The notes beneath the pieces are model-generated. The model was not told where the DNA came from, searched no databases, and worked only from the letters and a program-made list of their open reading frames with translations. From assembly GCF_058153355.1 (NCBI RefSeq), contig NZ_CM177019.1: a DNA stretch of 64,000 nt; one strand, written 5' to 3'. Both the position numbers and the translations under genes were made by a program. Shown piece by piece: positions 44,552 through 52,627 of the stretch. Numbering within the stretch: the first letter of the stretch is position 1; the number at the start of each line of letters is the position of its first letter.

Positions 44552-48239
<3,688 letters not shown>

Positions 48240-48299: not shown

Positions 48300-49373
48300 T
48301 CATTTGTTGATTTCAATTTTGTCCCATTCTCTCCCTCGGCTGTCCCTATACCGCGCCGCCATTGAATCTGATTTATGCCCGAGAAGACGTTGAGCAAATT
48401 TATCGCCAATCTGGTTCCGGTATAGCCTCGCTGACAGGCTACGCAGTTCATGGAATGTTGGCGGGTCTCCATCAAATGAGAGTCCGGAGGCATTTCTCGC
48501 CTTTGTAAAATACTTTGATACTGTTTTCGGGGAAAGCGGATCGTGATGCTTTGATGCGATTATAGTTTCACTGCTGCTGGCTTCCCTGCATTTCTGTAGT
48601 GTATCAACCAGTGAGATATTGAGCGCGTCAATCGTTAGCGTCAGCGGAATGGCGAGCTTAGCCCCTGTTTTACCCTGCTCAATGTGAAGATGGTTGTCGT
48701 TTATGTCTGACCACTTCATTCTACATAAATCGCCCACTCTCTGCCCTGTAATGACGGCCAAATCCATTGCCAGCCTCAGCCAGATAGGGAGAGGTTCGGC
48801 TGCATGGTAAATCTCGACATACTCATTAGCTGTCAGCCTTGAGCGCCTTACTTCTGACTTTGCTGTGCGGGTTGCTGTTACCGGATTCGTAGCCACATGC
48901 CCCTCGGCTATTGCTTCACGAAAAACGTCAACAAGGGTTGACCTGATTAATTTTGCGGAAGCCGCTTTACCTTCTGCTACGTAGGTATTTAGCATTGCTG
49001 CCACCTCTTTCGTTGATATGTCAGTGAGCGGTTTGTCCGGCAATTTTCTTCGAATTGCCCTGATTTTGCTGGCGTAGTCGAGTAGAGTTTTCGGTCTGAT
49101 GCCCCTCTCGCTGAGGATTGTTTCATATCGGTCAAGCCACGCATGAAGAGTGATTGCGTCAGCGCCTTTAATCCTGTCTATCAGTGACTCACGCCTGTTC
49201 TCAGATAGCAACTCAATATTGGCCTGAATAGCCTCTGAAACTGCTATCCTTCTGTCTCTGCCTAATCCGAACTCTTTACCCGTCCTTGGGTCCCTGTAGC
49301 AGTAATATCCATTGTTTCTTATATAAAGGTTAGGGGGTAAATCCCGGCGCTCATGACTTCGCCTTCTTCCCAT
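48300..49373 (-). CDS. int: lambda-family tyrosine integrase (357 aa)
   Basis: N-terminus MGRRRSHERRDLPPNLYIRNNGYYCYRDPRTGKEFGLGRDRRIA matches my memory of lambda Int; C-terminal catalytic region with HELRSL...LGH...Y. Confidence 0.9.
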   Translation of the reverse strand: MGRRRSHERRDLPPNLYIRNNGYYCYRDPRTGKEFGLGRDRRIAVSEAIQANIELLSENRRESLIDRIKGADAITLHAWLDRYETILSERGIRPKTLLDYASKIRAIRRKLPDKPLTDISTKEVAAMLNTYVAEGKAASAKLIRSTLVDVFREAIAEGHVATNPVTATRTAKSEVRRSRLTANEYVEIYHAAEPLPIWLRLAMDLAVITGQRVGDLCRMKWSDINDNHLHIEQGKTGAKLAIPLTLTIDALNISLVDTLQKCREASSSETIIASKHHDPLSPKTVSKYFTKARNASGLSFDGDPPTFHELRSLSARLYRNQIGDKFAQRLLGHKSDSMAARYRDSRGREWDKIEINK

Positions 49374-49569
49374 TTCTGATCCTCTTCAAAAGGCTATCTG
49401 TTACTGGTCGATTTAAGTCAACCTTTACCGCTGATTCGTGGAACAAATACTCTCTTCCATCCTTAACCGGAGGAGGGAATATCCTGCACTCGCGTACCCA
49501 TCGACGAACTGTTTCAAGGCTCCTTGGGCGTCGCTGGCGTGCGTTCCACTCCTGAAGTGTCAAGTACAT
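49351..49569 (-). CDS. xis: lambda-type excisionase (72 aa)
   Basis: MYLTLQEWNARQRRPRSLETVRRWVRECRIFPPPVKDGREYLF matches my memory of lambda Xis; overlaps int start. Confidence 0.85.
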   Translation of the reverse strand: MYLTLQEWNARQRRPRSLETVRRWVRECRIFPPPVKDGREYLFHESAVKVDLNRPVTDSLLKRIRNGKKAKS

Positions 49570-49653
49570 CGCAAAGTCTCCGCAATTACTCGCAAGGGAG
49601 CGAGTATTGGTTTATTTTCTCCAACAAAAAAGGAGCCGAAGCTCCTTTGATGA

Positions 49654-50325
49654 TTAAAATTCGAATTGTCTCGCCCGAAGGCTTTTCAGCATTGGTTTTG
49701 CCCGTTCGAAAAGGGCGCTTGCTTGGTCAAGTCGTGTCGCCTCCCTTAGCAGTACATCTCTGTTTTTCGTCACCGTGTAAAAAGTTTCAAACGCGATGTC
49801 ATACAGCTTGCTCGTGTATGATGAGTTCAGTTCCTTCAATATCGGGTACAGACGTTTGCAGATGTCCTGCGCATTCTCCATCTGTACCTGCATATAGCAA
49901 AGGAGGATGATTTCTTCGTCTGTGAATTGCGGCTGAATCTGCGGCTGCAGTTCGGTTGGTGTTGTTTTTCCCTGGCTGAAATAACAGTCTTCCAGTTTTT
50001 CGAACACATCCCACGCCTGATCGGTTTCGAGCATTTTGGCATGACGGGCGGCACCGCGTTCTGTCCAGAGGATGAGCGAGCGAACGTTACGGGCGATTGT
50101 CACAGAGTGACTTAAAGACACTCTGTGCTTAAACTCACGCAATTCTGCACCTTCCAGCAAAAAATAATGTTTACCAATAACAAAACGTTCATGGTTTCGG
50201 CTGTGGTTTTTGCGAATATTAGTTACATCTGTGCCGTAAAGGTGGGCAAGAAGTTCAGTAGTAATAACGGGGATTTGGTTATGGCTGATCTGGGGTACCG
50301 TTTCTACGGTGATTTGAGTAGACAT
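49654..50325 (-). CDS. phage antirepressor-like protein, ORF6N-type N-terminal domain
   Basis: KHYFLLEGAELREFKH...ILWTERGAARHAKMLETDQAWDVFEKLEDCYF resembles the ORF6N/antirepressor family; start chosen at the second Met (50325); track ORF start 50337 is the alternative. Confidence 0.5.
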   Translation of the reverse strand: MSTQITVETVPQISHNQIPVITTELLAHLYGTDVTNIRKNHSRNHERFVIGKHYFLLEGAELREFKHRVSLSHSVTIARNVRSLILWTERGAARHAKMLETDQAWDVFEKLEDCYFSQGKTTPTELQPQIQPQFTDEEIILLCYMQVQMENAQDICKRLYPILKELNSSYTSKLYDIAFETFYTVTKNRDVLLREATRLDQASALFERAKPMLKSLRARQFEF

Positions 50326-50490
50326 AGTCTTCTCCATATGTGTTTTAGTCTACGCTCACCAGTTAGTAGCTGGTGATCGGGTGTCAACTAGAGCCACATA
50401 TGAAGCTCCGGGCATATTCCCCTTGTGGGTATTGTATTACGCCTCTCCACCCGACCTTTGTACGGATGTAACTACGCCAAATTGCAGGCA

Positions 50491-50568
50491 TAAAAAAGCC
50501 GCAAAGCTATCGGGTGCGGATGACCGCATATGTGTTCTAGTACGGCCAGTATGCGATAGCTTTGGCGG
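50491..50568 (-). other. inverted repeat plus run of six T (minus strand) between the two antirepressor paralogs; possible terminator or structured RNA
   Basis: gccgcaaagctatcgg ... cgatagctttggcgg arms about 40 nt apart; reverse complement ends in TTTTTT. Confidence 0.25.
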
Positions 50569-50655
50569 ATTTGTCAAATCATGTAGGCCTTATCTTGCTG
50601 TAAGCCGCGCCATTCGGGCTTTTCCCCACATTTGGGGAAAACTATCTTGTCAAAA

Positions 50656-51438
50656 TCATGCAGCCTTTCGCTCTCCTTCGATGAGTTCCTCTATTTTGTG
50701 CACTCCAGCCTCGTTGTACCGAAATGTTTCAACCTGCTTGTCATTGTGCGCCGATTTGTCGATGAACCACTTCCCGTACTTTTCTGTTTTGAGCATGTAG
50801 GTGTTGGCTATGCGTCCTACCTTGTTGGCTGAAATACCGTAGCGCTGGCCGACTTCCGTAGCAGAGTAGTAGTGCTCTGAGATAGCTGGCAGAGGTACAA
50901 CATCGCGACCAACAATCGGGTTGAACACTCCAGCTACTGCTGCCTGCTTTGATTCTGAGGACAGATTCGGGAACATATTCACCAGTCGATCCGCCACGTT
51001 CAAAGCTATTTCCATGGCTCGCGCACGGTCTAGGCTACTTTCTGGTTGCGGTACTGGTTGAGGATGGTTGGCAACCTTTTCGCGCTGATTGAAGTAGCCG
51101 TCCTCCAGTTTTTCGAACACGTCCCATGCCTGATCGGTTTCGAGCATCTTCGCGTGACGGGCGGCTCCGCGCTCTGTCCAGAGGATGAGGTGGCGTGCAT
51201 TTGGGGCAATTTTCACAAAGTAGTTTAAAGCTACTTTGTGTTTTAGCGCGCGCAGCTCGTCACCAACGACCTTGTAGAAGTGTACCCCCTCAACAAAGCG
51301 CGACTTGTTTTCATGATGGTTTTGCCGGATGCGCACAACATCCGTTCCGTACAACTGCGCCAATAGTTCGCTGGTGATGACGTTGGTTTGTTTGTAGGTG
51401 ATTGGTGAAAGTGTTTCAACAGAAATTTGAGTATTCAT
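50656..51438 (-). CDS. phage antirepressor-like protein, ORF6N-type (260 aa), paralog of 49654..50325
   Basis: About 60-70% identical N-terminal 120 aa to the neighbouring ORF, with a distinct C-terminal domain. Confidence 0.5.
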   Translation of the reverse strand: MNTQISVETLSPITYKQTNVITSELLAQLYGTDVVRIRQNHHENKSRFVEGVHFYKVVGDELRALKHKVALNYFVKIAPNARHLILWTERGAARHAKMLETDQAWDVFEKLEDGYFNQREKVANHPQPVPQPESSLDRARAMEIALNVADRLVNMFPNLSSESKQAAVAGVFNPIVGRDVVPLPAISEHYYSATEVGQRYGISANKVGRIANTYMLKTEKYGKWFIDKSAHNDKQVETFRYNEAGVHKIEELIEGERKAA

Positions 51439-51580
51439 AGCGTCCTCACATTGGCTTTTGCATTGAAGAAAGCTTGACGGTGAACTCGCCGTAGCGAGTT
51501 CAGATAAAAGAAATCTCCGCGAATGCGAGGATTGTTATTCATTGCCGATATTCACCTTTATCTCAAACACCTTTATCGGC

Positions 51581-51823
51581 TTATCTCCTTTGCATGGCAC
51601 GTAATTTTTTCAGATGGTTCTCCTGCTCTGTTTCAGCCAGGATCTGGTGATATTCTCTGTGATCAATGTGTTCGAATAAATTATTGAATTTTCTGATGCA
51701 CACCCTTCCAGGATAGCCATCCATCCTCTTGAAGAATACTGAGTGATCAGTACTACGAATGATTTTTACTGGATAGCCAGCGCTATCGGTGTATATCTGA
51801 CCACGTTGAATCAGAGCGAACAT
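51581..51823 (-). CDS. hypothetical phage protein (80 aa)
   Basis: ORF in the leftward early operon; no motif recognised. Confidence 0.3.
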   Translation of the reverse strand: MFALIQRGQIYTDSAGYPVKIIRSTDHSVFFKRMDGYPGRVCIRKFNNLFEHIDHREYHQILAETEQENHLKKLRAMQRR

Positions 51824-51907
51824 TCCTTTATCTCCAGCGGCAAATCGAATACATCATCAGTGCCACCGCCAGTGCGGTTCCTACCTCTTTGAATGCTTCA
51901 GGCCAGG

Positions 51908-52627
51908 TCATTGATTCACCTCCTTCGGCGGTTCTGGTAGCGGCATCCAGTGGGTTACATTGCGGCTCTGCGTTTCGAAGAACTCCTCACCATTGCGGAC
52001 GACATCAAAAAATTCACCGTCTCGATATTGCGCATAAAGAACGAATGCGCCATCACATAAAATAATTACGTGCTGACCATCATCAGGCATTCGCTCACTA
52101 CAGCTTATCCAACCATCCGGAATTACCGGAGAGTTGCCGGGTTCTTTAATGTGCAAGCGAGGCTCACCATCTTTTGGTTCAGGCCACTGGCGTTCCATGT
52201 TGATCTTCAATTTATTTTCCATAGCAGCGGTAATTTCAGCATCACTGATACCAGCACGGCGCTGTGCATCCCACAACAGAAACTGCATATCAGCCCACTC
52301 GCTAAGATCGTCTGGTTCGGCTGCGGCTTCCAGTTCATCCAGCAGTACCAGCACGGTAGCCGGATTGGCCTCTGCTATGAATTCAGCGTTTGCATAAGCC
52401 TGAGCATCTGTTTCAACCAGGCAGTTAACATGACATTCTGCAATCACGCCACCGGGTTCTCCTTTCCATTTTTGACAAACAAAAACTCCTGTTAAATTGC
52501 CATGCCGATTAACAGATGTATGCCCTACGATGTAGCTTCCTTTAGTTGCTTTTTCTGCCTTGGCACGCAGTGCCTGATAGTCAATCTTGCTCACTGGTTG
52601 CCTCCTTTGCGAATCTGTTCCGCCCAT
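51908..52627 (-). CDS. phage protein with C-terminal DUF551-like domain (Ead/Ea22-like region of lambdoid phages)
   Basis: C-terminal WISCSERMP...VTHWMPLPEPP pattern recalled from DUF551 prophage proteins. Confidence 0.45.
   Translation of the reverse strand: MGGTDSQRRQPVSKIDYQALRAKAEKATKGSYIVGHTSVNRHGNLTGVFVCQKWKGEPGGVIAECHVNCLVETDAQAYANAEFIAEANPATVLVLLDELEAAAEPDDLSEWADMQFLLWDAQRRAGISDAEITAAMENKLKINMERQWPEPKDGEPRLHIKEPGNSPVIPDGWISCSERMPDDGQHVIILCDGAFVLYAQYRDGEFFDVVRNGEEFFETQSRNVTHWMPLPEPPKEVNQ

Follow-up and report, generated by a model that had tools for sequence, protein, structure and literature searches.

A probable c4/IsrK-type RNA cassette, built around an sRNA-Xcc1 RNA, in the leader of an antirepressor-like prophage gene

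The window analyzed in this study is a stretch of 64,000 nucleotides (nt) from contig NZ_CM177019.1 of the RefSeq assembly GCF_058153355.1. It contains two antirepressor-like genes that lie in tandem on the minus strand, with a spacer between them. Our results suggest that this spacer and the downstream gene probably form a cassette of the type known from c4 in phage P1 immI and from IsrK in Gifsy-1, in which, by analogy with those systems, RNA-RNA pairing would control translation of the antirepressor-like protein. The spacer contains a small RNA element that ends in a terminator (U), an RNA of the sRNA-Xcc1 family (X) and a target region at the downstream gene's ribosome-binding site (D), and the complementarity that joins the three co-varies among loci. 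The components of the cassette, all on the minus strand, are as follows.

50548..50577: P_U, a promoter-like site, TTGACA-18-CATACT, with 10/12 matches and a predicted transcription start near 50541
50489..50560: U, the terminator-ended small RNA element, identified by alignment, stem covariation and covariance model R1
50541..50534: box a1, ACUAGAAC, within U
50534..50527: box b1, CACAUAUG, within U
50527..50524: invariant GCGG within U
50497..50492: run of six U after the terminator hairpin of U (CCGC...GCGG + U6), the loop of which has the conserved CCCGAUAG
50367..50456: X, sRNA-Xcc1 (RF02221), 63.8 bits over model positions 1-87, with a gathering score of 53
50456..50447 with 50383..50375: closing stem P1 of X, from folding and covariation
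50438..50415: hairpin P2 of X, with a conserved internal loop
50409..50390: hairpin P3 of X, with box b', CUUCAUAUGUG, in its loop (50405..50395)
50393..50385: box a', CUCUAGUUG, in the junction of X
50374..50371: 3' tail of X, ACCA
50357..50375: hairpin CACCAGCUACUAACUGGUG directly 3' of X, starting inside the ACCA tail and conserved in the Escherichia coli clade
50323..50350: target region D, located at the ribosome-binding site, with repeats found as direct/inverted repeats and the ATG at 50325..50323
50350..50342: box a2, GACUAAAAC, in D
50342..50332: box b2, CACAUAUGGAG, including the Shine-Dalgarno (SD) sequence GGAG at 50335..50332
49654..50325: downstream antirepressor-like gene, ORF6N plus P22_AR_C, 223 amino acid residues from the ATG at 50325
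49625..49648: canonical intrinsic terminator AAAGGAGCUUCGGCUCCUUUUUUG between the downstream gene and xis, fold z = -3.48, which closes the cassette

Boxes a1 and b1 of U recur at the ribosome-binding site as a2 and b2, and box b' in the P3 loop and box a' in the junction of X are complementary to both copies. In the window, the duplex between the X core and D was calculated at -22.6 kcal/mol. The boxes vary among loci at the same three positions, and those of U, X and D match one another. Among close E. coli relatives whose scaffolds are near-identical, five different b boxes were found, each of which was matched in all three places; the box code of L010, for example, is CTTCAAAG. Cognate partners were compared with permuted ones in non-redundant loci (20000 permutations), with the X core limited to P3 and the junction and the arm of the closing stem excluded, and the similarity of U to D was also tested directly. 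For 43 viral loci, the z values were -18.8 for X core with U, -13.3 for X core with D and +11.0 for the similarity of U to D. The corresponding values for a replication with 60 bacterial loci were -19.7, -12.9 and +15.0. None of the 20000 permutations reached the observed value in any test of either set. The mean duplex strengths were about -26 kcal/mol for X with U and about -19 kcal/mol for X with D, intramolecular structure being ignored in both.

U was found upstream of X in nearly all loci, and its parts are, in this order, a short hairpin, a variable stretch, the GCGG that is invariant, a second hairpin, the stem of which covaries, and a U-run. The stems were set by hand and their pairs counted. 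Two pairs of the terminator stem were CG in 34 and UA in 11 sequences and GC in 32 and AU in 7 sequences, respectively, and this covariation was above that of all 500 shuffles and all slid controls. The consensus of the terminator loop was CCCG(U/A)(C/U)AG. RNAalifold returned no structure for the U alignment because the stems are short. Covariance model R1, which was built from U, recognized the element in the window with 47.6 bits (E 9e-8) and gave 81 hits in the 96 viral loci, and its independent hits outside the model-building set were in L001 (58 bits), L002, L071, L062 and L051. R1 found no second U in the whole window, and so none before the upstream paralogue. U matched no Rfam family, either in 49000..52000 (E <= 1) or in 15 related loci (E <= 0.1), and sRNA-Xcc1 was the only Rfam family in or beside the cassettes of these 15 loci. 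In L056, a sub-threshold match to the Rfam family BTnc231 was located away from the cassette. U would be an uncatalogued RNA family, with its transcript ends predicted. R1 also had hits without a nearby exact X core, at 7316-7380 of L072, 8486-8548 of L100 and 9953-10011 of L014; these may be either cassettes with a diverged X or orphan copies of U.

In the promoter scan, P_U was the sole sigma-70-like site in 49400..51800. Given this sole promoter-like site and the canonical terminator after the gene, the downstream gene forms a cassette of its own that runs from promoter to terminator. Promoter-like sites whose -35 hexamers were close to the consensus preceded U in 40 of 67 loci, compared with 8 of 335 random windows. 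The end of the -10 hexamer was 55-70 nt ahead of the end of the U-run in these loci, from which an RNA of about 50-60 nt is predicted. In a 61-nt fold of the RNA predicted to start at P_U, the terminator hairpin was weak.

X folds as a three-way junction in the single-sequence prediction. Its closing stem P1 covaries in 42 sequences, as exemplified by one pair that is GC in 26, AU in 12 and CG in 4 of them. The P2 core, AAUACAAUACCC-tetraloop-GGGGAAUA, is nearly invariant across phyla, and its tetraloop alternates between GNRA and UUCG. X ends 42 nt before the ATG at 50325, and the Rfam scan found no second X in the whole window, and so none before the upstream paralogue. In Xanthomonas, sRNA-Xcc1 was mapped as a discrete 88-nt RNA (PMC2996969), and it has been described as an integron-encoded, trans-acting RNA of Xanthomonas campestris and as controlled by HrpG/HrpX (Chen, 2011, as cited in other papers). 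Because of this 88-nt RNA and because of the acceptor-like closing stem with a 3' ACCA, it is probable that X of the window is also released as a stable, discrete RNA of about 90 nt. Two earlier papers mentioned in passing that sRNA-Xcc1 precedes an ORF6N gene in APSE phages and symE in Xanthomonas integrons, respectively. In the literature searched, sRNA-Xcc1 was nowhere tied to c4-type control, and Rfam has no clan for it. P3 of the window's X also reads GGAG, 6 nt and AUG UGG CUC UAG (50393..50409, minus strand), a possible SD followed by a three-codon mini open reading frame (ORF). This mini-ORF is probably a chance occurrence because the b box based on CAUAUG is found in this locus only.

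Viral contigs were scanned with the conserved P2 core, which yielded 120 loci with 99 distinct instances. In the latter, the ORF start was usually 30-46 nt after the X motif, and the same spacing was found in bacterial genomes. The 93 proteins encoded downstream in viral loci included Bro-N (26), AntA (21), P22_AR_N (19), KilA-N (14), Rha (7) and ORF6N (2) proteins, and the 86 encoded downstream in bacterial loci included Rha (14), Bro-N (12), AntA (12), ANT (9) and KilA-N (5) proteins. The bacterial occurrences identified in the genome scan were from Alpha-, Beta- and Gammaproteobacteria and Desulfovibrionaceae. When E. coli prophages occupy the same site, a gene of the AntA/AntB family follows sRNA-Xcc1 at a distance of about 40 nt. 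Of 5426 complete E. coli genomes, 387 matched the leader segment 50320..50600, and in 193 of these the match covered 80% or more of the segment; among the matches listed no annotated feature lay under the segment. The locus is thus an ordinary and common element in E. coli. Genomes of Shiga toxin-producing E. coli (STEC) carry sRNA-Xcc1, and Shiga-toxin phages carry the same leader.

Some phages have more than one cassette. L033/L034, which are from one 56-kb viral contig, have four copies of X, several cassettes per phage were also found in L024 and L043, and tandem cassettes are about 240-300 bp apart in some phages. Five tandem copies of sRNA-Xcc1 have been reported in the literature for Xylella fastidiosa Temecula1. 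The 17-base X core was also found in a few contigs with non-proteobacterial labels (L125, L126, L143, L144, L169 and others), which are metagenome-assembled genomes labelled Alistipes, Lachnospiraceae and Ruminococcaceae; in at least one of them (L126), a Bro-N gene follows the X core. These may be true non-proteobacterial occurrences or the result of binning contamination.

By analogy with the c4 and IsrK systems, the cassette could work as follows. P_U (50577..50548) would make U, an RNA of about 50 nt with a1 and b1 that ends at a weak terminator (U-run 50497..50492). Most transcripts from P_U would stop there, and some would read through and carry X, a2/b2 and the ORF. In the latter, the P3 loop of X would expose b' and its junction a', and their pairing with b2 and a2 would cover the SD and block translation, as c4 RNA does on icd-ant in phage P1. 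U, whose complementarity extends over a longer stretch that includes the same boxes, would compete for X, so that abundant U would free the ribosome-binding site; such relief would resemble the activation by short IsrK of its own read-through mRNA. Finally, a discrete X of about 90 nt, with a closing stem and a 3' ACCA like those of RNase P-processed c4, might act in trans as an immunity factor whose specificity is coded in the boxes. Two other modes of regulation were considered and rejected. LexA control, as in antirepressor modules of the Gifsy/Fels type, was dismissed as no LexA box was found in 50338..50655. The small RNA (sRNA) 24B_1 of phage 24B maps between lom and vb_24B_43, which is another region.

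The order of elements in the window is similar to that of the immI region of phages P1 and P7 (C4, RF01695; c4-a1b1, RF03163), where a promoter, a1 and b1, a structured RNA, a2 and b2, and an antirepressor follow one another. The phage P1 record annotates a1, b1, the 77-nt c4, a2 and b2, and its b2 ends 10 nt before the icd start. Similar to X, c4 of phage P1 has a closing stem, a capped hairpin (with UUCG in C4), a hairpin with b' in its loop and a' in the junction, and the C4 and sRNA-Xcc1 models both have 87 positions and CCACC-like tails. In phage P1, CGG comes after b1 and AGG after b2, as is also the case in the window (AGG/GGAG at b2), and a segment GCGG...CCGC...GCGG-U-run after b1 mirrors U. 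In both systems, the box sequences differ between related phages. The sole hit of the U model in the P1 region was this segment of a1/b1 plus terminator, which the isrK and c4-a1b1 models also match. Different from c4, however, X has a conserved internal loop in P2. The phage P1 operon contains icd and then ant, which are translationally coupled, whereas the window has no small ORF between X and the antirepressor-like gene, and the proposed target is the ribosome-binding site belonging to the antirepressor-like gene itself rather than to an icd-like ORF. Moreover, unlike in phage P1, the a1/b1 element of the system described here is clearly closed by a U-run terminator and often has a near-consensus -35 hexamer of its own, and no C1-type operator was identified in the window. 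Of the features linked to the RNase P processing of P1 c4, two can be seen in the window, namely a closing stem that resembles an acceptor stem and the 3' ACCA (50374..50371).

Similarities were also found with other prophage systems. In Gifsy-1, a leaky terminator marks the end of the short IsrK, which activates the translation of its own read-through mRNA for an antirepressor-like protein, IsrK is a structural homologue of P4 seqA, and the processed RNA downstream is related to P4 CI (PMC4825925). Similar to Gifsy-1 IsrK/STnc1160/orf45-anrP, the window has a small RNA element with a predicted leaky terminator upstream of its own proposed target mRNA, and a downstream RNA complementary to the short one, which in Gifsy-1 is stable and processed. 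With its predicted transcript ends, U has its own promoter and terminator and is complementary to the downstream leader RNA, as is characteristic of an isrK-type RNA. The inhibitory pairing in Gifsy-1, however, uses the orf45 coding sequence together with translational coupling, whereas the boxes of the window are directly on the SD. The CI RNA of P4 with seqA/seqC and the CA RNA of N15 are likewise processed RNAs in a leader between complementary sites (PMC4825925; PMC10732415), and they govern immunity or antirepressor expression, as is proposed for X. The outcome in P4 is premature termination of transcription, which differs from the occlusion of the ribosome-binding site proposed here, and P4 and N15 were compared via Rfam C4 only. 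Finally, the sar RNA of P22 immI is a small RNA that occludes the antirepressor gene's ribosome-binding site, and the downstream protein of the window has P22_AR_C; sar, however, is a cis-antisense RNA from the opposite strand, while all three elements of the window are on the same strand. The cassette would work like the c4/IsrK systems but belongs to sRNA-Xcc1, outside the C4, c4-2, c4-a1b1 and isrK families.

Several observations weigh against this assignment to the c4/IsrK type. The sign of the regulation, like the roles given to U and X, is drawn from analogy. In 49000..52000, no match at E <= 1 was found to C4 or c4-2 (RF02944, clan CL00128), and the same was true in the window for isrK (RF01394) and c4-a1b1. 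Conversely, the sRNA-Xcc1 model did not match P1 c4 at E <= 1, and the hit of the U model on P1 was weak, with 19.4 bits and an E-value of 0.17 in 281 kb. Thus, common descent with c4 is not demonstrated. In addition, the pairing model gives no reason for the most conserved nucleotides, namely those of the P2 internal loop of X and the GCGG and CCCGUCAG of U. The duplex energies leave out intramolecular structure; pairing of the X loop with D in cis would be a pseudoknot, which is beyond scoring by the folding tool; and the minimum-energy fold puts the SD in a weak local hairpin. The promoter scan found no promoter between U and X in the clade of the window, so that expression of X depends on the assumed read-through. 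Furthermore, Xanthomonas integron copies have U and X, but no a2/b2 was found close to the ORF that follows, so that the cis-target model does not apply to all copies. In L138 (Xanthomonas prunicola) and L184 (X. codiaei), a TTGACA promoter, U and X were found with matching a1/b1 and a'/b', and a SymE-like ORF is further downstream.

The Xanthomonas copies also bear on the possibility that X is an autonomous trans-acting sRNA on unlinked host or plant genes and that its place before the ORF is incidental. A trans-acting role with HrpG/HrpX control has been published for Xanthomonas (Chen, 2011, as cited in other papers) and proposed for Xylella, the RNA is a discrete one of 88 nt, STEC genomes carry sRNA-Xcc1, and the Xanthomonas copies have no a2/b2 at the next ORF. 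Such a role is at odds with the fixed spacing to the downstream start codon and with variable boxes that co-vary with the adjacent ribosome-binding site and U. As the seed of X changes from phage to phage, always together with its neighbour, the target must be a linked one, and we regard an exclusively unlinked role as unlikely. A trans role of X on other copies is compatible with the c4/IsrK-type cassette. Even less probable is that the spacer contains just a plain terminator between two mosaic antirepressor genes, with the downstream gene a moron that has its own promoter and no RNA-RNA regulation. The stable hairpin followed by U6, the promoter-like site, the canonical terminator after the gene and the mosaic junctions at 49933/49934, 50332 and near 50565-50591 are all as this explanation would have them. 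It leaves unexplained, however, the match to sRNA-Xcc1 above the curated threshold, the conservation of U across distant taxa and the three-way covariation of the boxes.

The conserved part of X raises a further possibility, namely that X is a leader that binds a ligand or a protein (a riboswitch or a ribonucleoprotein site), that the P2 loop senses a signal and that box pairing is secondary. A near-invariant P2 core with a swapping tetraloop is typical of a binding pocket or a tertiary module, and this core is what the pairing model does not explain. Against this, nothing points to a ligand or a protein, P2 was not found to take part in any terminator/antiterminator or SD-sequestering alternative, the covariation signal sits in the variable parts, and C4 RNA works without such a loop; we consider a binding leader very doubtful, more so than the plain terminator. 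The repeats could also be sites at the DNA level, either recombination signals or operators on which a repressor acts at P_U, within X and in the ribosome-binding region, given that the CACATATG-type boxes are partly palindromic in the window and that ATTTGACAAAT, which is over the -35 hexamer, is a small palindrome. The boxes elsewhere, however, are non-palindromic, X always has the reverse complement of the copies in U and D, G-U pairs are tolerated, the GNRA/UUCG tetraloops and the stem covariation point to RNA, and the spacer has no LexA box. Of the explanations weighed here, DNA sites are the most improbable.

In its published description, sRNA-Xcc1 is a stand-alone, trans-acting and virulence-linked RNA, whereas here it is taken to lie, like c4, at the centre of a cis-linked cassette with three parts. 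If the c4/IsrK-type model holds, it offers a mechanistic reading for an Rfam family so far called trans-acting and virulence-linked, adds the uncatalogued partner RNA U and lets cross-talk or hetero-immunity between prophages be predicted from sequence alone by the a/b box code. Through its organization, the locus connects sRNA-Xcc1, a family already in Rfam, and its uncatalogued partner RNA with antirepressor control of the c4/IsrK class. The evidence seems evenly balanced on the broader proposal that the sRNA-Xcc1 family is a second, very widespread class of c4-type immunity RNA rather than a group of independent virulence sRNAs. It would take the form of a portable cassette in which U is a decoy sRNA, X an antisense RNA and D the boxes at the ribosome-binding site, whose two-box code is rewritten from phage to phage and which gates the translation of nearly all families of antirepressor-like proteins (Bro-N, KilA-N, AntA, P22_AR_N, Rha and ORF6N) and sometimes of SymE-type toxins. 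If that were true, shared or distinct box codes would decide which co-resident prophages are induced together and which stay mutually immune. Antirepressors set when prophages wake, including Shiga-toxin phages with the same leader. The results also bear on the recent view of the extracellular-vesicle sRNAs of Xylella, which are homologues of sRNA-Xcc1.

The initial annotation of this stretch had noted, in a structured spacer, a long inverted repeat that ends in six T on the minus strand. Both the repeat and the structure were borne out. The repeat (50499..50568, minus strand) has exact 11-nt arms (50502-50512 and 50554-50564), which can be extended to about 15 bp (CCGCCAAAGCUAUCG and CGAUAGCUUUGCGG, 50568..50499), and is followed by the U6 run at 50497..50492. 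The 91-nt segment with the inverted repeat folded at -28.5 kcal/mol (z = -3.97), none of 200 shuffles folding as well, and the whole 318-bp spacer had a z value of -2.96. The 5' arm (50568..50554) is in the spacer of the P_U promoter and the 3' arm (50512..50499) in the terminator of U, where it constitutes the loop and the 3' side of the hairpin, so that the repeat is a composite one. A consensus terminator scan did not flag it because its loop of 41 nt is too large. With regard to the proposed internal terminator or regulatory RNA, both kinds of element were found, but the inverted repeat itself is the edge of a larger device. Absent from that annotation were sRNA-Xcc1, 34 nt downstream, and the co-varying boxes that join U, X and the ribosome-binding site.

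The arms show a compensatory change, with CTGTCG/CGACAG in L025 and CTATCG/CGATAG in the window. Both arms would be present only in transcripts that enter from upstream. Such transcripts might form the full 15-bp stem, which would be a stronger terminator and would insulate the cassette from read-in transcription. This is suggested by the weak terminator hairpin of the P_U RNA together with the 15-bp stem open to upstream transcripts, the pairing of which is backed by the compensatory change. Insulation is nevertheless speculative and the least supported point of the model.

The window includes the end of a lambdoid prophage, and in equivalent E. coli loci the prophage element adjoins ybhC. 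The other genes around the cassette, again on the minus strand, are listed below.

48300..49373: int, from the ORF list
49351..49569: xis, from the ORF list
49654..50337: mechanical ORF of the downstream gene, 227 amino acid residues, from the ORF list
50656..51438: upstream paralogue, 260 amino acid residues, with an ORF6N N-terminal domain, its own C-terminal half and a full-length match to the anti-repressor family phrog_1726

The start codon of the downstream gene is probably the ATG at 50325, since GGAG is 6 nt upstream and the predicted product begins with MSTQITVE, which parallels MNTQISVE of the paralogue. The two genes at 49654 and up to 51438, the 318-bp spacer (50338..50655), the shared N-terminal domain of about 120 amino acid residues, the different C-terminal halves and the antirepressor-like ORF6N identity were all as initially annotated. 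The two proteins were 53% identical over 168 amino acid residues (BLASTP, E 1e-57), mostly within the first 120 or so, and their C-terminal halves were unrelated. ORF6N (PF10543) was found in both, at 65.3 and 71.5 bits against a gathering cutoff of 27.8, and P22_AR_C in the downstream protein only. Both proteins had full-length matches to PHROG anti-repressor families, and antirepressor activity is for both a family label only. In phage 24B, an Ant of the P22_AR_C type aids derepression (PMC3064807), which lends indirect support to an antirepressor role.

The suggestion that the pair is a duplicated and diverged module found no support in the form stated, while the suggestion that it marks a recombination point did: the locus is a mosaic. 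In the E. coli prophages L001 and L002, which are at the same site, the downstream gene has an AntA-type N-terminal domain unrelated to that of the window. The C-terminal 90 amino acid residues of the AntA-type protein of L001 were 100% identical to those of the downstream protein of the window, and both prophages carry the same kind of leader. DNA breakpoints relative to a related prophage flank the N-terminal domain, with junctions at 49933/49934, 50332 and near 50565-50591. An unrelated N-terminal domain combined with an identical C-terminus and a like leader means that the N-terminal domain was swapped by mosaic recombination. Judged by these sequence comparisons, the paralogy is a domain swap and not a simple in-situ duplication.

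Further repeats were found around the upstream gene. A direct repeat, AAGGCYNCATGATTT(T)GACAA, is at 50642..50668 and 50567..50591 (minus strand). It provides a second TTGACA copy, 77 nt before that of P_U and overlapping the stop codon of the upstream gene, which may have been left by recombination or may be a second promoter. The upstream gene is followed by a perfect palindrome of 9 bp, UUUUCCCCA-AAUG-UGGGGAAAA (50620..50641), without a U-run on the coding strand. This palindrome sits within 55 bp (50592..50646) that do not align to the related prophage L002. The upstream paralogue is presumably part of the leftward early (pL-type) operon. A match to the Rfam family Lambda_thermo, the cIII thermoregulator, at 55671..55729 (minus strand, 88.5 bits) confirmed that a lambda-like leftward early operon is upstream. 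At the other end, the ORF of 448 amino acid residues at 46651..47997 (plus strand), beside the integrase gene of the prophage, encodes what we take, judging by its sequence, to be a transposase of the IS4 family. This putative transposase beside the integrase gene suggests an insertion sequence at the junction of prophage and chromosome.

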